A DNA stretch of 64,000 bases from Spirochaetales bacterium. GTDB taxonomy: Bacteria > Spirochaetota > Spirochaetia > SZUA-6 > RPPD01. The notes below the pieces were generated by a model that worked only from the letters and a program-made list of their open reading frames with translations, ran no database searches and had not been told where the DNA came from. Positions within the stretch are counted from its first letter, which is position 1. Each line of letters starts with the position of its first letter. Made by a program: the position numbers and the translations under genes. The stretch lies in the NCBI GenBank assembly GCA_016930675.1, contig JAFGGG010000021.1:38905-102904 (forward strand), given 5' to 3'. Below are positions 1,373 through 17,585 of this stretch, piece by piece.

Positions 1373-2589
1373 TACTCCACCTCCCGTTTTAAGAATGAGA
1401 ACCACGTTTCTTTATCTATGGCCTTTGCTAAAATAAACAGATCCTTATCCCCTCTGCCCGACATATTCACTATGATCGTCTTATCTTCAGGGTACTGTTT
1501 GGCTATTTTTAAGGCGAGCGCTCCGGCATGCGCCGATTCCAATGCGAATACTATGCCTTCATGCTCGGCAAAAAACCGCACCGCATCCAACGCTTCCTTA
1601 TCCGAAACCTCGATAAATTCAATCCTGCCGCTGCTCCCAAGAAAGGCAAGCTGCGGCCCGATGCCGGGATAGTCCAATCCGGCGGAAATGGAATGAGTGG
1701 GCAGTACCTGTCCGTCCTCATCAAGCAGGAAGTGTGATTTATATCCCTGCACAATGCCGGTTTTTGCCAATCCGGTCATACGCGCGGCATGTTCTCCCGG
1801 GCCTTTTCCCCTTCCTCCGGCCTCGGCACCGATGAGGCGCGGCTTGGTTTTTTCCAAATAGGGATAAAAGAAACCGATCGAATTTGATCCTCCTCCCACA
1901 CAGGCGATAAGCGCTTCCACATTCAATCCCTGTTTATCGATTTCCGCCTCCACCTCCCGTCCGATTATACTCTGGAATTCACGTACCATGTCGGGATATG
2001 GTGAAGGTCCTAGTGCCGAACCCAACAGATAATGGGTCGTGGGAAAGCTTGACGCCCAGTCACGCAGCGCCTCATTAACCGCGTCTTTAAGCGTGCGCGA
2101 GCCGCTTTTTACCGGCACCACCTCGGCACCGAACAACTCCATCCAGAATACATTAGGTCTCTGTCTGGCCATATCCACTTCACCCATGTACACTCTGCAC
2201 TCTAGGCCCAACTTGGCGCACATGGCGGCGGCGGCAAAACCATGCTGGCCTGCCCCGGTCTCCGCAATTATTCGCGTTTTACCCATCCGTTTGGCCAAAA
2301 GCCCTTGACCCAGCGCGTTATTAATTTTATGAGCTCCGGTATTGGCCAGACCTTCAAGTTTAATATAAATATGCGCGCCGCCGATTTTTTCTGTAGAGTT
2401 CTTGGCATAAAGCAGAGGAGTGGGTCGTCCGATATAGTCTCTGGCACCTAAAGCAAACTGCTCCTGAAACTGTTTATCGATAATAGCCTCTCGGTATGCG
2501 GTTTCCAATTCATCCAAAGGAGTATGCAGGATTTCCGCAACATAGCGGCCGCCGAACCGGCCGAAAAAGTTATTATAATACTTGTGCAC
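1372..2589 (-). CDS. trpB: Tryptophan synthase beta subunit
   Basis: Strong TrpB similarity (FGxFGGxYVxE, GAHKxN PLP-lysine region, GGGSNAIG). The likely start is GTG at 2589, with an AAGGAGA RBS 7 nt upstream, 17 nt inside the end of trpCF. The track start at 2670 would overlap trpCF by 98 nt. Confidence 0.88.
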   Translation of the reverse strand: MHKYYNNFFGRFGGRYVAEILHTPLDELETAYREAIIDKQFQEQFALGARDYIGRPTPLLYAKNSTEKIGGAHIYIKLEGLANTGAHKINNALGQGLLAKRMGKTRIIAETGAGQHGFAAAAMCAKLGLECRVYMGEVDMARQRPNVFWMELFGAEVVPVKSGSRTLKDAVNEALRDWASSFPTTHYLLGSALGPSPYPDMVREFQSIIGREVEAEIDKQGLNVEALIACVGGGSNSIGFFYPYLEKTKPRLIGAEAGGRGKGPGEHAARMTGLAKTGIVQGYKSHFLLDEDGQVLPTHSISAGLDYPGIGPQLAFLGSSGRIEFIEVSDKEALDAVRFFAEHEGIVFALESAHAGALALKIAKQYPEDKTIIVNMSGRGDKDLFILAKAIDKETWFSFLKREVE

Positions 2590-4006
2590 GTTCGATCTCC
2601 TTGAAATAGTGTGTGAGCTTCTCCGAATCTTTTTTACCGGGTTCCGCTTCCAGTTTGCTGGATGCGTCAATTAATTCAGGATTAAAGCGTGTAATAATTT
2701 CATGTATATTATGCGGTCCAAGCCCACCGGCCAGCCACAGTGCCGTGTGTTCCTTTGTCCTAAAAATCAATTCTTCAGAAAGCCTATGCCCTGTTCCGCC
2801 GCGCGCAGCTTCGGCATAGGCATCAATCAACACCCGCGGACAACGGTAGCCGGTTAAAGCGTCAACATCGCCCTTGGTTCTCAATTGAACCGCTTTATAG
2901 TAAGGAAAAGCGGCAGCAAAACAGGCAGCCGGCTGCTCATCACCGTGGAACTGAACGGCATCAAGATATTGCTCTTTAAGCAGTTTGCTTACCTGAGGAT
3001 CAATATCCGCATGGGCTTTGCACACCACGACTCCGACTTTTAGAATATCCAAATCCTTTAATTTATAAAGCAGCGAAATGTCTGCCTGTCGCGGTGAAGG
3101 GGCAAATATAAAACCCAATGCATCCGCTCCCAATCGTGCGGCGCGTTCCGCATCCTCTGCCCGTGTAATACCGCAGATTTTTACCAGAGGCCTGCCCTGC
3201 TGTTTACGCGAATAAAGTTTTTCCCAGAAGCTTCCCGCCTTAAGGGAATAGGAGGCCTGTATTTCTGCAATACATTCGGGATCACGCATAACTGCTTCTC
3301 CCACCAAAAGAGCGCTGAATCCTGAACTCAATGCAAAAAGCGCGTCCTCCTTGGACCAGATTCCCGATTCGAATACCAAATGAGTGTCCCATGTTATTCC
3401 CCGCTTTATTAAAAGCGGCAAAGTCAGATCCACTTTAAACGTGGAAAGATCGCGTGAGTTAATCCCGGTAAAGCGGGGTTTTAAATCAGCGGCCTTTTTT
3501 ATGTCAGCGTCGTCATGCACCTCAAGCAATACCGCCAATCCCAGCTCGCGGGCTTCCGTATATAAGACGTGCAATTGCTTTTTAGAGAGAATCGAGGCGA
3601 TAAGCAGTATCGCATCCGCACCCGCGCGGTGAGATATATGAATGTCTTCTTTTTCCAGTAAAAAATCCTTGCGCAATACGGCAAGATCCGGATAAGCCCT
3701 TTTTATATTGATAAGATCACCAAGTGAGCCTGAAAAATAATTGGGTTCGGTGAGCACGGATACCGTTTTTACTCCCTTTCCCGCGTAAACTCCCGCCTGC
3801 TGCACGGGATCCTTGTGCCGGGCGATATCTCCCTTGGAAGGCGAGCTGCGTTTTACCTCGCAGATTAAAAAAGGCGAGCGGTCGAACCGCGCAACCGGCA
3901 GATTACGTTTTTCGGGCACCGGACAGCCCAAGGCGAATCCTCTTTCCGCGATACACTTTCTTCGTTTCTGAACAATCTCATCTCTTATATTCATATAATG
4001 ATCCAT
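2573..4006 (-). CDS. trpCF: Bifunctional indole-3-glycerol-phosphate synthase / phosphoribosylanthranilate isomerase (TrpC-TrpF fusion)
   Basis: 477 aa. The N-terminal IGPS domain and C-terminal PRAI domain (KICGITRAEDAERAARLGADALGFIF) are the same fusion as E. coli trpC. Confidence 0.9.
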   Translation of the reverse strand: MDHYMNIRDEIVQKRRKCIAERGFALGCPVPEKRNLPVARFDRSPFLICEVKRSSPSKGDIARHKDPVQQAGVYAGKGVKTVSVLTEPNYFSGSLGDLINIKRAYPDLAVLRKDFLLEKEDIHISHRAGADAILLIASILSKKQLHVLYTEARELGLAVLLEVHDDADIKKAADLKPRFTGINSRDLSTFKVDLTLPLLIKRGITWDTHLVFESGIWSKEDALFALSSGFSALLVGEAVMRDPECIAEIQASYSLKAGSFWEKLYSRKQQGRPLVKICGITRAEDAERAARLGADALGFIFAPSPRQADISLLYKLKDLDILKVGVVVCKAHADIDPQVSKLLKEQYLDAVQFHGDEQPAACFAAAFPYYKAVQLRTKGDVDALTGYRCPRVLIDAYAEAARGGTGHRLSEELIFRTKEHTALWLAGGLGPHNIHEIITRFNPELIDASSKLEAEPGKKDSEKLTHYFKEIERAQVL

Positions 4007-5703: not shown

Positions 5704-7119
5704 CTAAACCTCCAAACCAACGGCTTTTTCCATAGCCTTTAATTTATTCTCTGTTTCTTCGAATTCCTTTTCCGGAACCGAATCATAGACAATTCCCGCG
5801 CCGGCCTGCAGCACCAGTATATCTTTTTTCTTAAAACCGCAGCGAATGACAATACAACTGTCAAGATTGCCGTTCGGCTCCATATAGCCGACGATCCCCG
5901 CGTAAAAGCTGCGCCGCATTTTTTCTAATCCATCCAACACTTCAATCGCTTTGATCTTGGGCGCGCCGGAAACCGTTCCTGCGGGGAAGGTGGCCCGGAT
6001 GGCGTCGGCCCCTGTTTTTTCCGGTTTTAAATCACCCACTACTTCGGAAACAATGTGCATGACATGTGAATAACGTTCTATACCCATACTCTCGGTCACC
6101 TTCACGGTACCTGCTTTGCATATTCTTCCGATATCATTCCGGGCCAGATCAACAAGCATCAGATGCTCGGCCAGCTCCTTTTCATCGGAGAGCAGATCTT
6201 TTTCCAGGGACTGTTCTTCAGCCTGTGTTTTTCCCCGCTTACGGGTTCCGGCTATGGGTCTGATTAAAACCTGACCGTTTTTCACTTTAACATGGATCTC
6301 GGGTGAAGCACCGAAAAGCTGAAAACTGCCGCAGTCGATAAAAAACATATAAGGCGAAGGATTGAATGAGCGCAAGTTTCGGTAGGCATCCATGGCTGTA
6401 AGATCGGTTCGGATATATACCCTGCGGGAAAGTACACCCTGAAACAGGTTTCCCTTTATAATTTCCTCCCTTACCCGCTCAACTCCTTGCATGTAATCCT
6501 GTTTGTCCTGAGGATTGTGAATTATTTCAGATGTATATTCCTTTTTTGTCGAGGTCATAAAATTAAAATCCAAATCGTTTATTCTCTCTTCTATCTGCCT
6601 GAAAGCTTCATTAAGATCGATGGCATGTTCCTTGTAATTCAGACCCAGCAGGATTATGGTATCCGTATAGTGATCAAAAATGACAAAAATATGTCCGAAC
6701 AAAAACAATGCATCGGGAATATTCAGATCATCCGGTTTTTGCATCAATTTGATAGTATCGAAGTGGCTGCAAAACTCATACGTGATATAACCTAATCCTC
6801 CGGCGGGAAAGGGGAAGTCATGTATCACATCCTTGTGCTGGTCCGCGAAGTAAAGAAGCGCGTCCAGAATATCCCTGCCCTGGCTTTTTATCTTAAAATT
6901 CTTATTGTTTTTTCTGAGGAATATACTGTTGCTTGTCTGGTACACTCTGAATGCCTCTTTTACCAGCATGAGCGACCAGCGCTGTCTGCCTTTGGCAAAC
7001 GAAGCCGATTCCAGCAGTACCTGGGCTTCGAGTTTTGTGGCCAGAGTATAGGGAGTAAACCTCTCCCCGTTTAAGGTTTTTATGATACAGTTGGAAAATG
7101 TTTTTACTGCTGTACTCAA
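5704..7119 (-). CDS. trpE: Anthranilate synthase component I
   Basis: TrpE chorismate-binding motifs are present (LVDLARNDIGR, GAPK, GAGIV). A strong AAGGAGG RBS precedes the ATG at 7119. Confidence 0.92.
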   Translation of the reverse strand: MSTAVKTFSNCIIKTLNGERFTPYTLATKLEAQVLLESASFAKGRQRWSLMLVKEAFRVYQTSNSIFLRKNNKNFKIKSQGRDILDALLYFADQHKDVIHDFPFPAGGLGYITYEFCSHFDTIKLMQKPDDLNIPDALFLFGHIFVIFDHYTDTIILLGLNYKEHAIDLNEAFRQIEERINDLDFNFMTSTKKEYTSEIIHNPQDKQDYMQGVERVREEIIKGNLFQGVLSRRVYIRTDLTAMDAYRNLRSFNPSPYMFFIDCGSFQLFGASPEIHVKVKNGQVLIRPIAGTRKRGKTQAEEQSLEKDLLSDEKELAEHLMLVDLARNDIGRICKAGTVKVTESMGIERYSHVMHIVSEVVGDLKPEKTGADAIRATFPAGTVSGAPKIKAIEVLDGLEKMRRSFYAGIVGYMEPNGNLDSCIVIRCGFKKKDILVLQAGAGIVYDSVPEKEFEETENKLKAMEKAVGLEV

Positions 7120-7274
7120 AATTACTTCCTCCTTTACTTATGAAAAAGCCGCCACTTACGGTGGTGATTAAAAAGATGGTCAATAAGACGGTGGCTTTTT
7201 CGCCTACTCTGCACCCCTACGGGGTGCTCCTCTACATACCACCAGCAAAGCTGGCGGTATGTAGATTTTCTTAA

Positions 7275-7372
7275 TAAAAAAAGCCGCATTCCCCCTTTAA
7301 CATAAGGCTTGCGGCTTATTATAAAAAATAAGCCGTAGACCCTGGAAAACATTTACACCAGAATCCGCGGCT
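7275..7372 (-). terminator. Tandem rho-independent attenuator terminators of the trp leader (T1 7330-7372 + U-run 7321-7329; T2 7281-7317 + U7 7275-7281)
   Basis: Read on the minus strand, T1 is AAGCCGCGGATTCTGG...CCAGGGTCTACGGCTT followed by ATTTTTTAT. T2 is AAGCCGCAAGCC...GGGGGAATGCGGCTT followed by TTTTTTT. Alternative pairings are visible. The Trp-codon segment GGTGGTTCTGG pairs with CCAGAACCGC. That segment can instead pair with GCGGATTCTGG, the 5' arm of T1. GGCTTATT, the 3' arm of T1, pairs with AATAAGCC, the 5' arm of T2. Confidence 0.7.
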
Positions 7373-7396
7373 TACAACTCTTGCGTGCGGTTCTGG

Positions 7397-7465
7397 TTAG
7401 TTCCAGAACCACCACCAATTCGCGACTGCAGAACATGAAGTAATAGATCTACCTGATATGTTCAT
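7397..7465 (-). CDS. trpL: trp operon leader peptide, 22 aa: MNISGRSITSCSAVANWWWFWN (four Trp in the last six residues)
   Basis: Hand translation from the ATG at 7465 to the TAA at 7397-7399. TGG TGG TGG TTC TGG AAC TAA sits directly in front of the hairpin cascade and terminators, ~250 nt upstream of trpE. It is not in the ORF track because it is too short. Confidence 0.75.
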   Translation of the reverse strand: MNISGRSITSCSAVANWWWFWN

Positions 7466-7472
7466 GTCCAAA

Positions 7473-7501
7473 TTGTTAAAGCATTCTCCTGTTTTTGTCA
7501 A
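7473..7501 (-). promoter_or_regulatory. Putative sigma70-type promoter for the trp leader (TTGACA-N17-TAACAA)
   Basis: On the minus strand: cTTGACA aaaacaggagaatgctt TAACAAt ttggac ATG. The -10 ends about 8 nt before the leader ATG, which implies a near-leaderless leader mRNA and is consistent with the missing SD. Confidence 0.4.
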
Positions 7502-7554
7502 GAGGTTGATGGATTTTTTTAAGAGATAGCGTATAATTGAATAGAGGTGGAAAA

Positions 7555-8538
7555 ATGAAATTCAGGTTAATCGTTTTTTTCTTTTTTACAATAACTCTGA
7601 CCATTTGCCCGGAAGACAAGGTCGATAAAGCCACAGCGTTATTGAAAAAGTACTCAAGCGAATCGTATTTTATTGTTTCCACATATAACGCATTACCTGA
7701 GGAGTTTATTATTGGCAATTCCCGTATCACCATAGGCAAGGGTTCGGGCAGTACTTTCCTTACAGGAAGTGATATACGCAGCTTACTTAGTTGCGTAAGC
7801 ACTTTTGTGCATGAGATTTATCACGCTTTTTCGGGATATTACCATTGGTCCCAGCCTGATAAAATCCCTGCGGGTCATAAACCAGGAGACAGGTATTATA
7901 GTTACTATCTGGGTAACGGTGAAGTTCTGATTGTAAAGATTACAAGGGGATTTTACACGGTAGAAATTGCCCCGCACATTCCTGAAGAGCTTCGCTTTAG
8001 CGATTACGGAATGTATATAAATACAACCGCTAAGATGCTCGCTTCCCAGCAATACGGCGTCTTTGGTCTGCTTGAAGAATGGAATGCCTATTATTGGAGT
8101 ACAAAATGCGCCCTTGATCTTTTGGGATATTATGAGGATGAAGCAGGATCCGATAGTGGTCTTTGGATATCATTTTTTAACGAGGTCTATTCTACGCTTT
8201 ATATTTTCCAGGAATTCAAATATTTTATTATCAAATATCTGGAATATGCCAGAAAAGTTCATCCGGATATATATCAATCCTTAATAAATAATAATGACTT
8301 CAAGGAAGCATATCATCGCATTCATGAAAATCATATCGCCGTCGGAGCCCAGTTTGAAAAAGAAAAAAACAGAGTATTCAAAAAATTAAGAAAAAAGGGA
8401 CTGGAGATTATTGAGCTGGAGACGTATACAACCATAAATAACACGGGTTTTTATCATTTTATGAATCGGTACAGGGCTTTTGAAAAGGAACTTAAAAAGC
8501 CGCAATTTGCTGCGGTGTTTGCAGATCTGGAAAAATAG
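7555..8538 (+). CDS. Secreted putative zinc metallopeptidase-like protein (HExxH motif: VHEIYH)
   Basis: Signal peptide (MKFRLIVFFFFTITLTICPEDK). GAGGTGG RBS before the ATG at 7555. One HExxH motif. Family not recognised. Confidence 0.5.
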   Translation: MKFRLIVFFFFTITLTICPEDKVDKATALLKKYSSESYFIVSTYNALPEEFIIGNSRITIGKGSGSTFLTGSDIRSLLSCVSTFVHEIYHAFSGYYHWSQPDKIPAGHKPGDRYYSYYLGNGEVLIVKITRGFYTVEIAPHIPEELRFSDYGMYINTTAKMLASQQYGVFGLLEEWNAYYWSTKCALDLLGYYEDEAGSDSGLWISFFNEVYSTLYIFQEFKYFIIKYLEYARKVHPDIYQSLINNNDFKEAYHRIHENHIAVGAQFEKEKNRVFKKLRKKGLEIIELETYTTINNTGFYHFMNRYRAFEKELKKPQFAAVFADLEK

Positions 8539-8587: not shown

Positions 8588-10285
8588 TTAGAAAGTAAGC
8601 ACTTTCCTCTCTCCTAATGCACTATCTTCAAAAACCATCTCCCGATTCGCCTTTCCCGGCGCTACTATGGGGTACACGTTTTCCGTACCCGAAATCGGAA
8701 TTTCAATGAGCATGGGACCAGATTCTTTGCCTGCCTGTTTAAGCACCGCAGTAACATCATCCGCTTCCGTAAGCTTGACTGCTTTGATCCCGAATGCTTC
8801 GGCCAGGACGGCAAAGTCCATTTGTTTTTCAAAACAGGACGCCGCGTAGATTTTATCGTAAAACAGCTCCTGCTGCTGTCGCACCAAACCTAATTGGTTA
8901 TTGTTAAACAGGATGATGGTAATATTCAGATCCAGTTCCGCCAGTGTAACAAGCTCCTGAATGTTCATATACAGGGAGCCGTCCCCGCTGATACAGAGTA
9001 TGTTTTTGTCCGGATTTGCTAGGGCCGCGCCGATAGCCGCGGGCAGGCCGAACCCCATGGTGCCCAAACCTCCCGATGTCAACAGAGTGCGGGGCTTAGA
9101 AAATCCATAGCCCTGAGCCGTCCACATCTGATGCTGTCCCACATCCGTGGTCACTATTGTGTTCGCCGGCAGGCTTGAGTTGATCTGCTTAAGCAACGCA
9201 AGCGGGTGGCGAGCGTCATTTTTTTCCGGAATAAATTCAGGAAACCGGCATTGGATTTCACTTATTTCTTTTGTCCATAAGTAGCGCTCCTGTGCCTGAA
9301 TTAACGGCAGCAGCTGCCGAAACACAGCTTTAAGGTCTCCCGCCACCGCCAGATCCGCCTTTTTGATCTTGTCAATCTCCCGTTCATCTATATCAATATG
9401 AATAATTTTTGCCTGCGGGCAGAACTCCTTAACCTTGCCTGTCGCCCTGTCATCAAAACGCACGCCCAGAGCAATCAGCAGATCTGTTTCATCAAGAATA
9501 TTGTTGGTTGCCCGCAATCCGTGCATGCCCAGCATGCCCAGAAACAGGGGATCGCGCGCCGGGAAACAGCCCAGCCCCATCAGGGTTGACACCAGCGGAA
9601 TATTGCCGGTCTTTGCCAGTTCGTACAGTTCATTATGGGTTCCCGACGCAATAACGCCGCCTCCGGCGTAGATCAGCGGCCGCCCGGCCTGATTAATGGC
9701 CCGCGCTATTTGTTTTATCTTGTCCTTATCCGGCGCGGCGCCCGCTGTTTTTTGCCCCGAGTCCGGCCAAACCTCAAACTCAATATCGGCAAGCTGCACA
9801 TCTTTTGGCACATCGATAACAACCGGCCCCTGTCTGCCGCTTTGTGCGATACTAAAAGCTTCCGGGATCACCATCAACAGATCCCGCGCCTTGGTCGCCA
9901 GATAGCTTTTTTTGGTAATGGGTTTGCACAGCTCAAGCGTATTGATCTCCTGAAACGCGTCAGTTCCTAAAAAGGCTGTGGGCACCTGCCCGCAGATCAC
10001 GATTATGGGCACCGAATCCATCTTGGCATCGGTCACAGCGGTAAGCACATTGGTCACTCCGGGTCCGGATGTCACGAAGCAAACAGCCGGCCTGCCGGTT
10101 GAGCGCGCCATGCCGTGCGCCATAAAGCCCGCTCCCTGTTCATGGCGGGCCAGTACATGTTGAATCGAACTCTGCGCCAAAGCTTTGTACAAAGGCAGAT
10201 TTGCTCCTCCCAGAATGCCCGTTACAATCTCTATACCCTGTCGCTCCAGTAAGGCAATAATCAGTTCCGCTCCATTCATTTTCAT
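8588..10285 (-). CDS. ilvB: Acetolactate synthase (acetohydroxy-acid synthase) large subunit, IlvB-like
   Basis: 565 aa ThDP enzyme closely resembling E. coli IlvB (GAELIIALLERQGIEIVTGILGG..., HEQGAGFMAHGMAR, GPGVTNVLTAV, GTDAFQE, GGLGTMGFGLPAAIGA). AGGAGG RBS. There is no ilvN-like small-subunit ORF downstream. Confidence 0.85.
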   Translation of the reverse strand: MKMNGAELIIALLERQGIEIVTGILGGANLPLYKALAQSSIQHVLARHEQGAGFMAHGMARSTGRPAVCFVTSGPGVTNVLTAVTDAKMDSVPIIVICGQVPTAFLGTDAFQEINTLELCKPITKKSYLATKARDLLMVIPEAFSIAQSGRQGPVVIDVPKDVQLADIEFEVWPDSGQKTAGAAPDKDKIKQIARAINQAGRPLIYAGGGVIASGTHNELYELAKTGNIPLVSTLMGLGCFPARDPLFLGMLGMHGLRATNNILDETDLLIALGVRFDDRATGKVKEFCPQAKIIHIDIDEREIDKIKKADLAVAGDLKAVFRQLLPLIQAQERYLWTKEISEIQCRFPEFIPEKNDARHPLALLKQINSSLPANTIVTTDVGQHQMWTAQGYGFSKPRTLLTSGGLGTMGFGLPAAIGAALANPDKNILCISGDGSLYMNIQELVTLAELDLNITIILFNNNQLGLVRQQQELFYDKIYAASCFEKQMDFAVLAEAFGIKAVKLTEADDVTAVLKQAGKESGPMLIEIPISGTENVYPIVAPGKANREMVFEDSALGERKVLTF

Positions 10286-10333
10286 AATTCTTTTCCTCCT
10301 ATAAATATTTATTGTTTGGGAAGCGGCTGAAAA

Positions 10334-10376
10334 CGGATTTTATATTTAATCCGACGCAGTGCGGATTTAAATCCGC
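10334..10376. promoter_or_regulatory. Two adjacent palindromes CGGATTTtatatttAATCCG (10334-10353) and GCGGATTTAAATCCGC (10361-10376) between the ilvB attenuator terminator and the ilvB RBS
   Basis: Perfect inverted repeats sharing the half-site CGGATTT/AAATCCG. They lie in the 5'UTR of ilvB and are candidate operator sites or RNA hairpins. Confidence 0.4.
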
Positions 10377-10414
10377 GCGGACCACACCGCTGTAAGCATC
10401 TTGCCTGCAGGGCA

Positions 10415-10450
10415 TAAAAAAAGCCCCTGCAGGTTCACACCTCCAGGGGC
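10415..10450 (-). terminator. Rho-independent terminator (attenuator) downstream of the ilvB leader peptide: GCCCCTG-N14-CAGGGGC + U7-8
   Basis: On the minus strand: GCCCCTGgaggtgtgaacctgCAGGGGCTTTTTTTa, 25 nt after the leader stop. A-rich on the other flank, so it is structurally bidirectional. Confidence 0.75.
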
Positions 10451-10474
10451 TTTTCTTCCCTTTTATCCTACCCT

Positions 10475-10570
10475 TTAAGTCCTCCGGTGCAAACCTGGTG
10501 CGAGACGATCTACTACGACGACTACAAGAACGAGAACATTTAAATTTTGGTTTGCACGAAATATATTCAT
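10475..10570 (-). CDS. ivbL: ilvB leader peptide, 31 aa: MNIFRANQNLNVLVLVVVVVDRLAPGLHRRT (Val/Leu run)
   Basis: Translated from the ATG at 10570. Nine consecutive Val/Leu codons (GTT CTC GTT CTT GTA GTC GTC GTA GTA) directly upstream of a strong terminator and of ilvB. Analogous to E. coli IvbL (…AAVVVVRVVVVV…). The longer track ORF (10475..10672) begins at a TTG and is rejected. Confidence 0.7.
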   Translation of the reverse strand: MNIFRANQNLNVLVLVVVVVDRLAPGLHRRT

Positions 10571-10589
10571 AATTTTCAACCTAAAACAA

Positions 10590-10618
10590 ATATAAGCGTT
10601 TTTAGCGGCAAGTGTCAA
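10590..10618 (-). promoter_or_regulatory. Putative promoter for the ilvB leader (TTGACA-N17-TTATAT)
   Basis: On the minus strand: cctcTTGACA cttgccgctaaaaacgc TTATATttgttttaggttgaaaatt ATG. Confidence 0.35.
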
Positions 10619-12372: not shown

Positions 12373-14175
12373 TCAATTGTATGACAGCAGTTTCATTTTT
12401 TCCAGCGCATTTGTAAATTCATCAAAGCGCTGATTATAATGAGAGCAGCCGTGCTGAAGTATTTTATTATTGGCCAACATTATATTCATCGTACCTTCGG
12501 AAAAGCTTATGTTTGTAATCTGTCGTAAAGGTACATACGTGGAAATCATGCCGTAATTTGCTGTATAATTTTTTCTGGGAATTTCTGTATCCTGTAACAG
12601 GAGAAGTTCTTTATCCGTCAAAATAAAAAGACTGTTGGGGATATGTGTCCTGAAAACGGAGATTTTTTTCTGGAACATGTTGGAAATTATTATTGTGCCG
12701 GGCAGAATGGATCGTCTGCTGTAATTATAAAATTTGTAACTGAATTCGTGAAGATAATCCAGTTTCGCCAACTCCGTTTCATGCTTTTCATGATTATACC
12801 TGATATCTGTTTCTTGAAAGAGTTTTCTCCTCATAGTCATTATGATTGGATTAAAAATCTCGTCATTTACGGTATTGTAGGGAATGGTTGCCGTATCAGA
12901 AACGTTATTTATATTTAACCATGAATGTAAGAGTACCTCCCCGTGTACAATATAGGTAATCGATTCCAAAGGAATTTCGGTCTTTGCAACAGCCTCCTGC
13001 CTTTTCTCCAAAATGGTTACCTTGTCATCATATATGCAAAACAGCTTTTCATATCTCTTCAATTGACGGGGTAATTTTATCTCTGGGATTCTGATGATAT
13101 AAGGCAGCTCTTTTGAGGCAATCGGGAAATAGATACTGTACTCTATGGGGATATCCTTATACTTTCTGATTACACCAGACCAGTGTTGTATCGCTTTATT
13201 AACTCCGGGAACTATATGTTCTTTGTTTGATTGCAGATTTCTCGCTTCTGTTATGCTTTTATACTTTTCATCGTGCTGGTGCACATCATTTTTACCGTGC
13301 TTTATCATCGTATTTAAGGCATACTCAAAAGCCTGTTCTGCATCCAGTGGTCGATTGCGGGGATTCAGCTGCAGGAAATACTCCAGCAGATTATACATCG
13401 AATGTGACTCTTTTATGAAAGACTTCCATTCAAGGATATTATTGTCATTCATCATTTTTTCCGGACTCAGGTGGGTTAACAGAACCAAGGCCAATACCCC
13501 CACTGCGTAGATATCCGTTTGAGGGAGTCCCTTGCCCATAAACTGTTCCGGTGCCATGTAGCCGAATGTGCCCGCGACCGTATCTCCATGAACCGTGTTT
13601 CTAACCACATCCTTTACCGAACCAAAATCAATCAATACAATACTGCCATTGGGTTTACGAATGAGATTGGAGAGTTTAATATCCCTATGGATAACCGCCG
13701 GATTCAAACTCTGAAGATATTTGAGTATTTTAAGCACGTCGAGTATAAGCTCAAAAACCTCACTGTCAGTGTAACGCTTTTGTTTGAATTCATCTTTCAG
13801 ATTTGTGCCTTTTACGTATTGCTGCACCAGATAATGAATATAATACTTTCCGGATTCAAAATTGAAATAGTCCAGGAATTTAGGTATCTGAGGATGGTTG
13901 AGCTGCCGCAAAACCCGCATTTCACGGATAAACAGTTCCTCCTCTTTCCAGCTTTTTATCTTATGAATGGACAGTTCCTTTATTATTACCTTTCTATTTC
14001 CCATTTTTAAAGAAGCCAGATAGGTAATCGCCTGATTACAGCCAATGATCTCATGCAGCAGGTATGTGTCTTTTAATAAAAGATTACTATTGCAGGCAGT
14101 ACATTTTTGTAAACTGGCTGCTACTTTTTCTCCGCAACCGGGGCAAACACATGTGTCCATACTGCCATAATACAC
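12373..14175 (-). CDS. Ser/Thr protein kinase with N-terminal zinc-ribbon (CPGCG…CTAC) and ~300 aa uncharacterised C-terminal domain
   Basis: Hanks kinase motifs HRDIKLSNL, DFG, APE. N-terminal CxxC…CxxC. The C-terminal half has no recognisable family. Confidence 0.8.
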   Translation of the reverse strand: MYYGSMDTCVCPGCGEKVAASLQKCTACNSNLLLKDTYLLHEIIGCNQAITYLASLKMGNRKVIIKELSIHKIKSWKEEELFIREMRVLRQLNHPQIPKFLDYFNFESGKYYIHYLVQQYVKGTNLKDEFKQKRYTDSEVFELILDVLKILKYLQSLNPAVIHRDIKLSNLIRKPNGSIVLIDFGSVKDVVRNTVHGDTVAGTFGYMAPEQFMGKGLPQTDIYAVGVLALVLLTHLSPEKMMNDNNILEWKSFIKESHSMYNLLEYFLQLNPRNRPLDAEQAFEYALNTMIKHGKNDVHQHDEKYKSITEARNLQSNKEHIVPGVNKAIQHWSGVIRKYKDIPIEYSIYFPIASKELPYIIRIPEIKLPRQLKRYEKLFCIYDDKVTILEKRQEAVAKTEIPLESITYIVHGEVLLHSWLNINNVSDTATIPYNTVNDEIFNPIIMTMRRKLFQETDIRYNHEKHETELAKLDYLHEFSYKFYNYSRRSILPGTIIISNMFQKKISVFRTHIPNSLFILTDKELLLLQDTEIPRKNYTANYGMISTYVPLRQITNISFSEGTMNIMLANNKILQHGCSHYNQRFDEFTNALEKMKLLSYN

Positions 14176-14260: not shown

Positions 14261-16156
14261 ATGCCAAAGTCTCAAAAGAAAAGTGAAACCGCCCACCTTA
14301 AAAAAGCTCTTGGTGTGTTTTCGGTATTCAGCATTGCCAGCGGCGCCATGATCAGCTCTGGCCTTTTTATCCTGCCGGGGATTGTCTACGCCAAGGCCGG
14401 ACCTTCAATTATTTTAGGTTACTTTTTAGCATCGCTTTTAATTATTCCCGCCATGTTTTCCAAAACAGAACTGGCCACGGCCATGCCCAAATCCGGAGGC
14501 ACGTACTTCTTTGTGCACAGAAGCCTGGGGCCGCTTTTCGGTACCTTCGCGGGATTCGCCTCCTGGTTTTCCTTGAGTCTGAAGAGTGCCTTTGCCCTGG
14601 TGGGTATCGGGATTTTTTTGGAGCCGCTTGTACAGAATCTTCTGCTCCCGGCCCATATAATCACCAAGGGCATCGCGGTGCTGTTTACCGTGGTCTTCTG
14701 CTTGCTGAATATTCTGGGTATAAAGGAAAGCGCAAGGCTGCAGAATATAATGCTGTTTTTACTTCTACTGATTTTGGCTGTTTTTAATTTAATCGGTATT
14801 AACAATCTTACCAATATTCAAAATTTTAATCCGTTTTTAAAGCACGGCTGGCTGCCTATCATCACGGTAACAGGAATGATTTTCATTTCATACGGCGGAC
14901 TCACCAAAATCGCCTCCGTGGCCGAAGAAATAAAAAATCCCAATAAAACCATACCGCGCGGCATGTTCGCCGCCTTTTCCGTGGTAACCGTAATCTATGT
15001 GCTTACAGTCTTTATTACAATCGGTGTCAGCGGAAATAAGCTGGAAAATTCATTCACCCCTATATCCGACGCCGCAAAAGTTTTTTTAGGTCAACCCGGA
15101 TTCATTCTGCTTGCCGCGGCAGCCATGTTTGCCTTTATTACCACAGCCAACGCCGGTCTGCTTTCCGCCTCCCGCAATCCCCTGGCCATGGCCAAAGACA
15201 ATCTTATACCCTCTTTTTTTTCACGCATGAACGTAAAACTCAAAACCCCGACCGTCTCAATAATCATCACCTCGACCTTTATGATTTTAATCATCATCTT
15301 CTTAGACTTGGAACAACTGGTCAAGGTAGCCTCCACCATGATGCTTATCCTGTTCGCCTTCGACAACCTATCACTTATACTTATGCGGGAAAGCAAAATC
15401 ATCTCCTACAAACCCTCATATAAAGCTCCTCTATATCCCTACTTACAGATTGTCGGAACCATTCTGTATGTGGTTCTAATAATAGAAATGGGTTTGATAA
15501 CTTTTTTAATCACATCCGCTTTTTTTGTAATTTCTTTTCTATGGTACATTCTCTATTCAAAGTCACGCGCGGAAAGGGATTCCGCGCTTATTCACATTGT
15601 AGAGCGGGTTACTTCAAAAGAGATTAAATCCCGTACCATTACGGATGAACTGCAAAACATTCTTATAGAAAGAGACCAAATTATCGAAGACCGTTTCGAT
15701 AAAATTATTAAACAGGCATCGATTCTTGATATCGATAAAGAGATCGATGTAGCTGAGCTCTTTCGTATTATCGCCTCTACCTTCTCTAAGAAATTCAAAA
15801 TAAAACATGGTACCATACTCAAACTTTTAAAAGCGCGTGAAGCGGAATCTTCAACAGCAATTCACGCGGGATTAGCTATTCCTCATATTATTATTCCGGG
15901 CACATCCCTGTTTGATATTGTACTTATCCGTTGTAAAGAGGGCATTCATTATGGTCCGGAAATTCCTTTGGTAAACATAGTTTTCGCCTTAGTGGGCACA
16001 AAAGACGAACGTAATTTTCACCTGCAGGCGCTGATGGCCATTGCGCAGATAGTACAGCATAAGGATTTTGAGCACACATGGATGAAAACAAAAAGCCTTG
16101 AAGACCTGCGCAGCCTGATTCTGCTCACTCAGCGTCTGCGCAAGGGAAATGCATAA
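14261..16156 (+). CDS. APC-superfamily amino acid permease fused to a C-terminal PTS EIIA(Ntr)/fructose-type EIIA domain
   Basis: About 12 predicted TM helices (AA_permease-like: SGLFILPG, GGTYFF). The C-terminal ~150 aa show PtsN/EIIA-2 features (HGLAIPHIIIPG…, FALVGTKDE…HLQALMAIAQI). RBS CAAGGAG. Confidence 0.75.
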   Translation: MPKSQKKSETAHLKKALGVFSVFSIASGAMISSGLFILPGIVYAKAGPSIILGYFLASLLIIPAMFSKTELATAMPKSGGTYFFVHRSLGPLFGTFAGFASWFSLSLKSAFALVGIGIFLEPLVQNLLLPAHIITKGIAVLFTVVFCLLNILGIKESARLQNIMLFLLLLILAVFNLIGINNLTNIQNFNPFLKHGWLPIITVTGMIFISYGGLTKIASVAEEIKNPNKTIPRGMFAAFSVVTVIYVLTVFITIGVSGNKLENSFTPISDAAKVFLGQPGFILLAAAAMFAFITTANAGLLSASRNPLAMAKDNLIPSFFSRMNVKLKTPTVSIIITSTFMILIIIFLDLEQLVKVASTMMLILFAFDNLSLILMRESKIISYKPSYKAPLYPYLQIVGTILYVVLIIEMGLITFLITSAFFVISFLWYILYSKSRAERDSALIHIVERVTSKEIKSRTITDELQNILIERDQIIEDRFDKIIKQASILDIDKEIDVAELFRIIASTFSKKFKIKHGTILKLLKAREAESSTAIHAGLAIPHIIIPGTSLFDIVLIRCKEGIHYGPEIPLVNIVFALVGTKDERNFHLQALMAIAQIVQHKDFEHTWMKTKSLEDLRSLILLTQRLRKGNA

Positions 16157-16847: not shown

Positions 16848-17585
16848 CTAATAGCCTCCATAGCTTTTAAGCAGCTCCGCTGCTTCGGACTTTTCCGCTT
16901 TAATGGCTGTCTGGTACGGGGTAAAACCGTTGCTGGCTTTTTTATTAATCTCTGCGCCATGATCTATAAGCAGGACTATCATCTCCTTCTGTCCGTAAAG
17001 CGCAGCCATATGCAATGGAGTAAGGTCATAAACAGCCAGAGCATGCACATCAGCACCGTTATCCAAAAGCAGCTTAGCTCCTTCCAGCAAATCCGTTGTC
17101 ACAATAATATGAAGCGGAGTATAACCCTCACTGCTCTTGATATTAACCTGAGCGCCCTCTTTAATTAACACTTTAAGAACCTCGATTTGTTTTCCTGACA
17201 CGGCTTCCAGTATGGGTGAAAGACCGTTTTCAGGGCTTTGATGATTTATATTGGCCCCGGCTTTGAGGAGCAGCAGTACGATGTCTTTAAATCCTCTTCC
17301 GCAGGCCCAGCTGAGCGGAGTACAGCCTTTATTATCGATGGGATCTATCTCTGCTCCTGACTTAATCAGAATTTTTACTATACCAATTTGACCGTTATAT
17401 GCTGCGCAATGCAGGGGTGTCCAGTGATTTTTCTCATCCGGCTGATTAATAAGCTCAGGATTTTCTTTGAGGAGACGCATGAGTTCTTCTTTATTCCCCT
17501 GCCAGGCCGCTTCATATATATCCTGCGCTAAAAGAGTTACATTTAATAATACTGTAAGACCAACCAGTAAGAGTAGCTTTTTCAT
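16848..17585 (-). CDS. Secreted ankyrin-repeat protein
   Basis: Signal peptide, then at least 6 ankyrin repeats (TPLHxAAxxGxxxxVxxLLxxGA). Confidence 0.8.
   Translation of the reverse strand: MKKLLLLVGLTVLLNVTLLAQDIYEAAWQGNKEELMRLLKENPELINQPDEKNHWTPLHCAAYNGQIGIVKILIKSGAEIDPIDNKGCTPLSWACGRGFKDIVLLLLKAGANINHQSPENGLSPILEAVSGKQIEVLKVLIKEGAQVNIKSSEGYTPLHIIVTTDLLEGAKLLLDNGADVHALAVYDLTPLHMAALYGQKEMIVLLIDHGAEINKKASNGFTPYQTAIKAEKSEAAELLKSYGGY

Follow-up and report, generated by a model that had tools for sequence, protein, structure and literature searches.

A predicted Val/Leu leader-peptide attenuator upstream of a solitary ilvB-type acetolactate synthase gene in an uncultured Spirochaetales bacterium

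How is the gene for an acetolactate synthase (ALS) catalytic subunit controlled when no small-subunit gene follows it? The question is raised by a locus in a stretch of 64,000 nucleotides from an uncultured Spirochaetales bacterium (assembly GCA_016930675.1, contig JAFGGG010000021.1, positions 38,905 to 102,904), hereafter called the window. Upstream of its ilvB-type ALS gene lie a small open reading frame (ORF) with a run of Val and Leu codons, a terminator and, nearer to the gene, two palindromes. The classical example of an ilvB gene under leader-peptide attenuation is that of E. coli, where the leader is ivbL. We conclude from sequence comparison and folding models that the small ORF and the RNA behind it very probably constitute a Val/Leu leader-peptide (ribosome-mediated) transcription attenuator of the solitary ALS gene, a reading that is strongly supported in silico. 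The leader combines a short ORF, a cluster of cognate codons, an intrinsic terminator and an antiterminator that, as modeled, depends on the position of the ribosome.

All attenuator elements and the ALS gene are on the minus strand, and coordinates are those of the window. Transcription would start from a sigma-70-type promoter (10589..10618) with TTGACA at 10618..10613, a 17-nt spacer and TTATAT at 10595..10590. In a promoter scan the same site was read with an 18-nt spacer and TATATT (11/12 matches), and it received the top score in the 4.5 kb scanned; TTGACA and a TTATAT-like -10 element are kept at the equal position in five related loci (L081, L082, L083, L085, and L208). Downstream of a weak AGG resembling a Shine-Dalgarno (SD) sequence (10582..10580) lies the leader ORF (10475..10570), with 31 codons and a UAA stop, encoding MNIFRANQNLNVLVLVVVVVDRLAPGLHRRT. 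Codons 12–20 (10511..10537; GUU CUC GUU CUU GUA GUC GUC GUA GUA) specify VLVLVVVVV, seven Val and two Leu without interruption. No other stretch of at least seven consecutive Val/Leu residues occurs in the six frames of the window, and runs of nine or more averaged 0.01 in block shuffles. The ORF is followed by an intrinsic terminator (10416..10454) reading AAAAGCCCCUG-G-AGGU-GUGA-ACCU-G-CAGGGGC and then U7. A first-pass annotation of this DNA had described the ORF with its nine Val/Leu codons, the TTGACA-N17-TTATAT promoter and the terminator GCCCCTG-N14-CAGGGGC. ORF and promoter stand as described, and the terminator is present with two small corrections: it starts 24 nt past the stop codon instead of 25, and what had been read as U8 is U7 and then A and U.

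A homologous leader precedes the ALS gene in six independent metagenome contigs, whose ALS proteins are 59–77% identical to that of the window. The comparison set thus comprised the window together with L081, L082, L083, L085/L086, L208, and L214, i.e., seven full sequences; the gene order around L085/L086 is that of the window, with kinase and permease genes upstream and trpE downstream. An in-frame homologous ORF with start and stop codons is present in L081, L082, L083, L085, L208, and L214, and across all seven sequences an AGG 9–12 nt 5′ of the AUG, the ORF and its stop are conserved, the stop itself being either UAA or UGA. Within the Val/Leu run, relatives differ only by synonymous or Val-to-Leu and Leu-to-Val changes, and the amino acids of codons 21–25 vary freely. 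The L208 leader has two extra codons and keeps its frame. This pattern of substitution is of the coding type, as expected of an attenuator. Codons 5–7 (CGU GCA AAC) and 26–28 (GGU UUG CAC) are invariant and mutually complementary. Since the invariance extends to third positions, it is the RNA, not the peptide, that seems to be constrained. A scan of metagenome DNA with GGGGCTTTTTTTATGCCC, the conserved end of the terminator, returned at least 120 matches, and all among the matches listed were unrelated terminators.

The leader RNA as a whole folds more stably than shuffled sequence (z = -4.6), and three of its segments can form alternative helices. The terminator hairpin, extended by pairing of the A-tract with the U-tract, has a predicted energy of -28.1 kcal/mol; 97% of its alignment cells are paired and three of its pairs have compensatory changes, a result equaled by just 1 of 500 shuffles. 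Region 2, CAGGUUUGCACC (codons 24–28; 10486..10497), would act as the switching strand, since it can pair with either region 1 or region 3. Region 3, GGUGUGAACCUG (10430..10441), comprises the upper stem and loop of the terminator, and its pairing with region 2 yields a candidate antiterminator of 12 bp (-16.6 kcal/mol for the helix alone and -21.1 kcal/mol for the segment when folded). This helix is kept in 7/7 sequences, with 96.4% of cells paired vs. at most 42% when the partner is slid; over alignments of six and seven sequences the figures are 96–97% vs. at most 43%. In L208, both partners read CCGG, in place of CAGG in region 2 and CCUG in region 3; an A-U pair of the antiterminator has thereby become C-G, whereas the corresponding pair of the L208 terminator is broken. 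Moreover, the sequence of the terminator loop is conserved among relatives, which is unusual for a plain terminator, since such a hairpin does not need a particular loop, and which counts in favor of the antiterminator. The first-pass annotation had proposed a Val/Leu attenuator without finding an antiterminator, and had suggested RNA folding and a comparison of the leader in relatives as checks. The helix of regions 2 and 3 is now proposed for the missing antiterminator, and the comparison supports the proposal of an attenuator, with leader, terminator and antiterminator all conserved in the related contigs.

The third helix pairs region 1, GUGCAAACC (codons 5–8; 10549..10557), as the 5′ strand of a putative protector or pause helix, with region 2. 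Region 1 is perfectly complementary to GGUUUGCAC within region 2, giving nine Watson-Crick pairs with 10487..10495. Across six sequences, 98% of the cells of helix 1:2 are paired, and region 1 is invariant at the nucleotide level, third positions included.

To model stalling, we restricted the folding to RNA on the 3′ side of the ribosome, in a transcript that ends before the 3′ arm of the terminator. Folding that was unconstrained or merely masked at the ribosome was discarded in favor of this approach, as its helices closed around the ribosome, which is physically impossible. With the P-site at any codon through the last Val, the full antiterminator was the minimum-energy structure in 7/7 sequences, and it was lost 1–3 codons past the last Val because region 2 becomes covered. 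Counted from its first nucleotide, the last Val codon lies 16 nt from region 2 in L208, with its two extra codons, just as it does in the window.

From these elements, their conservation, their complementarities and their positional logic, we infer that translation of the leader, stalling of the ribosome and the kinetics of folding would together make ALS expression dependent on how much charged tRNA-Val and tRNA-Leu is available. RNA polymerase would start at the conserved promoter, and the 31-codon leader would be translated as the polymerase advances. When Val and Leu are plentiful, the ribosome would pass the nine Val/Leu codons, reach the stop codon and cover region 2, leaving region 3 free for the terminator hairpin, so that transcription would halt at the U-tract before the ALS gene. 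When either amino acid is scarce, the ribosome would stall within codons 12–20 and leave region 2 exposed, as a ribosome on the last Val codon is predicted to shield the RNA exactly up to the start of region 2. The stalled ribosome would itself keep region 2 away from region 1, and the free region 2 would pair with region 3 once the latter has been transcribed, allowing the polymerase to read through into the ALS gene. If the leader is not translated at all, region 1 may hold region 2, again favoring termination.

Several observations weigh against this scheme. Covariation in the antiterminator is thin, with most columns invariant and a single compensatory pair, and the shuffle control for this helix was not significant (263/500), so that its statistical support is modest. 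Helix 1:2 shows no covariation whatsoever and has a mismatch in L083. The antiterminator sits entirely in the loop that is closed by the lower stem of the terminator, with linkers of 2 and 0 nt. We take it as a structural inference that linkers of 0–2 nt beside a 12-bp helix would prevent the lower stem from coexisting with it, but the predicted exclusion is then steric and the lower stem is not sequestered directly. The footprint of the ribosome, 15 nt beyond the first P-site nucleotide, is an assumed value. At equilibrium the terminator always wins; the choice must therefore be kinetic, as in other attenuators, and the model rests on kinetics that cannot be computed here. Finally, the antiterminator was also predicted in 4/6 sequences for nascent RNA free of ribosomes, which makes termination in the absence of translation the weakest branch of the model.

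Given these points, an attenuator that is genuine but works through a different antiterminator or protector has to be considered, in which the Val/Leu codons pair with the purine-rich segment GGAGGACUUAAAGGGUAGGAUA or the first GCACC pairs with GGUGU in another register. Indeed, the unconstrained minimum free energy structure of the window's leader is an imperfect extended hairpin that joins the Val/Leu codons to the purine-rich segment and does not contain the 9-bp helix 1:2, and there are two GCACC motifs in the window. However, neither the purine-rich segment nor the first GCACC is conserved in L085, L208, and L214, whereas all three retain the proposed regions 1, 2, and 3, and we regard such an alternative as unlikely.

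A second alternative assigns an additional layer of control to the palindromes, as had been suggested by the first-pass annotation. They would serve as a protein operator or as an RNA element that governs translation or stability of the ALS message after read-through. The palindromes themselves are real. The spacer downstream of the terminator measures 131 nt and contains both: palindrome 1, GCGGAUUUAAAUCCGC (DNA GCGGATTTAAATCCGC; 10361..10376), which is specific to the window and has 2 nt between its half-sites, and palindrome 2, CGGAUU-AAAUAUAA-AAUCCG (10334..10353), with a gap of 8 nt. Between them they account for every match to CGGATT-N(0-14)-AATCCG in the window, two vs. 0.07 expected, and their location between the terminator and the ribosome-binding site (RBS) of the ALS gene (AGGAGG, 10295..10300, kept in all relatives) would suit such a role. 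In addition, conservation in the close clade extends to the motifs that flank them, AUGCCCUGC and CAGCCGYUUCCC; CUUCC in the latter can pair with the RBS, and the complementarity of GGGAAG with CUUCCC includes one double change, in L081.

The palindromes, on the other hand, are not conserved. Both are absent from L082, L084, L085, and L207, while L081 and L083 retain only a weaker form of the gene-proximal hairpin, palindrome 2, and the spacers of L208 and L214 measure just 23 and 51 nt. On the aligned spacers, RNAalifold returned one weakly conserved helix, CGCGGA...UCCGU, with a covariation term of 0; this helix appears to have been locally duplicated into the two hairpins of the window. The spacers fold like shuffled sequence (z from -1.1 to +0.3), and on these values, together with the zero covariation, we rejected a conserved structured element there. 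Half-site gaps of 2 vs. 8 nt also fit poorly with recognition by one dimeric protein. The search for the motif gave no copy beyond the two, and thus no support within the window for the regulon that had been envisaged. In sum, the conservation, the constant spacing and the further copies in 64 kb by which a protein operator might be recognized were not found in these sequences. A regulatory layer built on the palindromes is accordingly quite improbable, and we consider them most likely to be incidental hairpins in the 5′ untranslated region of the read-through transcript, without a conserved regulatory role.

The two conserved motifs of the spacer deserve comment. In the close clade, AUGCCCYGC is kept directly 3′ of the U-tract and CAGCCGYUUCCC farther on. 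The former corresponds in the window to AUGCCCUGCAGG (10404..10415), which is conserved in the close clade and not in L208 or L214; the latter corresponds to CAGCCGCUUCCC (10318..10329), complementary both to the RBS (CUUCC with GGAGG) and to GGGAAG upstream of the terminator (CUUCCC, 10318..10323, with 10455..10460). In L081 both sides of this second pairing are changed, to GGGAAA and UUUCCC, and at the changed position L082 and L085 have a G·U pair. The complementarity of GGGAAG and CUUCCC may be due to chance, or may reflect a long-range or anti-SD interaction. The conserved AUG that follows the U-tract might open a second upstream ORF (uORF), a reading that we rejected, since such an ORF would run for 3, 4, 4, 27, 28, or 38 codons depending on the sequence and is joined in frame with the ALS gene in L083. 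Valine feedback inhibition of ALS is normally provided by IlvN. It is conceivable, if improbable, that the spacer of ~90–190 nt found in the clade that lacks ilvN acts as a second, translational switch (anti-SD/anti-anti-SD) on read-through transcripts, which, if true, would compensate for the loss of this inhibition. A strict coupling between loss of ilvN and gain of the spacer was not established, as L214 has a short spacer and no ilvN within the 160 nt available past its ALS gene.

A third possibility is that the leader is a metabolite- or tRNA-sensing RNA (a riboswitch or T-box), or is attenuated through a protein, and that the small ORF is incidental. There is precedent for it, as ppGpp riboswitches regulate ilvB in some Firmicutes (PMC10272879) and as the ilvB-ilvN locus of L213, whose ALS is equally related to that of the window, is under T-box control. 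No T-box or riboswitch match was obtained in the window at the gathering threshold or in the leader up to an E value of 10, with a tool that does detect the T-box of L213, and the ORF, its frame, its Val/Leu run, the coding-type substitutions and the position of the run relative to region 2 are all conserved, so that we find this explanation very unlikely. The T-box leader of L213 (2178..2425; Rfam RF00230, 107 bits) lies upstream of ilvB-ilvN, with an ALS ~60% identical to that of the window. A T-box in one locus and a leader peptide in the other imply that the type of regulator has been swapped within this ALS clade. Least credible of all is a functional hydrophobic micro-protein with the hairpin as its mere terminator: the peptide ends MNIFRAN and GLHRR are conserved among close relatives, but they coincide with nucleotide invariance and mutual complementarity, which points to a constraint on the RNA, the peptide differs in L208 and L214 where the RNA motifs persist, the hydrophobic core spans only ~10 residues, and the unit is always directly 5′ of an ALS gene, whatever the other neighbors.

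The gene that the predicted attenuator would control (8588..10285, minus strand) encodes a 565-aa ALS large subunit. The protein is 100% identical to one from a Spirochaetales MAG (metagenome-assembled genome). It scored 663 bits against TIGR00118 (cut-off 538), its best NCBIfam model is PRK08155, and its nearest relatives among reference genomes are 50–55% identical. These include enterobacterial proteins (~53% identity) encoded behind an upstream peptide ..AAVVVVRVVVVVGNAP, and in E. coli the locus is annotated ivbL-ilvB-ilvN; the label of an ilvB-type gene, already given by the first-pass annotation, is thereby justified. By sequence, the catalytic subunit belongs to the ilvB (AHAS I) clade and is biosynthetic.

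The absence of ilvN after ilvB, also remarked upon earlier, is borne out. The next gene past ALS is on the opposite strand (7537..8538), with a trpE-trpGD operon after it, and tblastn with three IlvN-type small subunits found no match in the window (best E value 0.35). Neither a second ALS nor an ilvN/ilvH, ilvC, or leu homolog was found in the 64 kb. An ilvN-type small subunit with an ACT domain (95–98 aa) is encoded directly after the ALS gene in L208, L209, L210, and L213, whose ALS proteins are ~60% identical to that of the window, whereas no small-subunit gene directly follows ALS in the window, L081, L082, L084, or L085. By this distribution, the adjacent ilvN has been lost from the close clade. 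In annotation, it would be appropriate to label the leader ORF and terminator as regulatory elements, and to record the ALS as a catalytic subunit that stands alone and is possibly not feedback-inhibited.

The surroundings of the gene hold a second leader of the same general kind. Upstream of trpE (5704..7119), at 7270..7505 on the minus strand and ~3 kb from the ilvB leader, a TTGACA promoter (~7501) precedes an ORF (~7465..7397) encoding MNISGRSITSCSAVANWWWFWN, in which WWWFW places four Trp in five codons. It is followed by a hairpin and U-run (GCCGCAAGCC...GAAUGCGGCUUUUUUU), and a further hairpin with a U-run (AAAAAGCCACCG...GUGGCGGCUUUUUC, ~7200..7145) lies just 5′ of the trpE RBS. A Trp-rich leader with a terminator at the trp operon suggests that the organism uses attenuation on at least two operons. 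The ORF between ALS and the trp operon, 7537..8538 on the plus strand and convergent with ALS, encodes 333 aa without a Pfam or NCBIfam match; near the ALS gene of L082 there is a homolog that is 47% identical over 161 aa. ALS is directly followed by trpE in the syntenic L085 and, in L081 and L082, by an unrelated ORF of 226–227 aa on the same strand without a Pfam domain. On the other side of the leader are genes for a 600-aa Ser/Thr protein kinase (12373..14175, minus strand) and an amino-acid permease fused to a PTS EIIA-2 domain (14261..16156, plus strand), both syntenic with L086, and for a 245-aa protein made solely of ankyrin repeats (16848..17585, minus strand).

How does this leader compare with known systems? 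Like E. coli ivbL-ilvBN, which the first-pass annotation took it to mirror, it has ~31–32 codons with a long Val(/Leu) run, protector, antiterminator and terminator helices and a Rho-independent terminator, and it stands upstream of an ilvB-clade ALS, the two enzymes being ~53% identical. The likeness is one of operation. The E. coli peptide (MT..AAVVVVRVVVVVGNAP) and that of the window (MNIFRAN..VLVLVVVVV..GLHRRT) show no sequence homology, and the enterobacterial leaders of L002, L004-L006, and L010 share just the Val run with it. In E. coli the regulatory codons lie within region 1 and the antiterminator takes the whole 5′ arm of the terminator, whereas in the window the codons occupy the loop between regions 1 and 2, and the antiterminator takes the terminator's loop and upper stem. 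Unlike the E. coli operon, the window has no ilvN after ilvB, and a 131-nt spacer separates its terminator from the RBS. Judged by sequence, the leader has the same working as ivbL and belongs to another sequence family, not being an ivbL ortholog; the earlier parallel thus holds for the mode of action and fails for the sequence.

Closer in taxonomy is the Leptospira ilvB motif, originally described by Brewer (2021; PMC8632094). It was reinterpreted by Narunsky (2023; PMC10272879), together with the multi-phylum ilvB-OMG motif, as a uORF attenuator, and uORF attenuation was concluded to be common for ilvB (PMC10272879). As in the window, ilvB is preceded in these motifs by a uORF and then a terminator, the uORF having many codons for Val and other branched-chain residues, and for Thr. 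The Leptospira host is likewise a spirochete, and L208 and L214 also have Thr-rich stretches. The sequence families differ, however: the Leptospira locus L009 has an unrelated leader peptide, and signature 9-mers of the window leader were found in none of the published ilvB-motif alignments (compared by 9-mers, as there was no usable Rfam model). In Corynebacterium, the leader-peptide attenuator of ilvB (the ilvB-II motif of ilvBNC) was validated with reporters (PMC10272879). It resembles our leader in that an antiterminator competes with the terminator stem, and differs from it in phylum and sequence, in a uORF of just 15–17 codons with about four branched-chain codons and in an operon that includes ilvN and ilvC. 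The T-box of L213 also senses tRNA charging through a choice between terminator and antiterminator upstream of an ilvB-clade ALS, but it recognizes the uncharged tRNA itself, and neither a ribosome nor an ORF takes part.

Against Rfam, the whole window gave no match at the gathering threshold, and the leader showed only sub-threshold resemblance to His, Phe, and Thr leaders at E values up to 10; ilvB-type matches were missing for the window and for every relative, even for the E. coli-type L004 and the Leptospira L009, so that the lack of a match is uninformative. With no shared 9-mers and just the Val run in common with IvbL, the leader would represent a new sequence family of a known mechanism.

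Val-run leaders with terminators upstream of ilvB-clade ALS genes are found in Enterobacteriaceae, Leptospira, Treponema, other Spirochaetia, Zoogloea, and MAGs of Verrucomicrobiota and of a deltaproteobacterium. Unrelated leaders with a Val run lie, each with a terminator, within ~400 nt 5′ of ALS in L009 (Leptospira sarikeiensis), L011 and L012 (Treponema/Spirochaetes MAGs), L007 and L008 (Zoogloea), L003 (Verrucomicrobiota), and L001 (deltaproteobacterial MAG); MKNIGLQSNLTLWVVLWMVVVVTLPWSGFTP, MNTKLLVTVVTVLVVKVFR, and MTRIARFLPVDVVVVRVVSVGKRAS are examples of their peptides, and some, among them those of L007 and L008, resemble E. coli IvbL (VVVVRVV). In L209, two leader-peptide and terminator units stand in tandem upstream of ilvB-ilvN (2560..2960; peptides MQLVKIIFLVVEVNVVVVVHGIFTVGMK and ..MKIYIVDIVVVVYVVGRPPP), which suggests a double attenuation, first Val-rich and then Ile/Val-rich. 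The leader described here leaves the understanding of the attenuation mechanism unchanged. It supports the published view that ilvB-type ALS genes are under leader-peptide attenuation across many phyla, and to these it adds a sequence-distinct Val/Leu family from uncultured Spirochaetales, together with a three-helix model that is directly testable.

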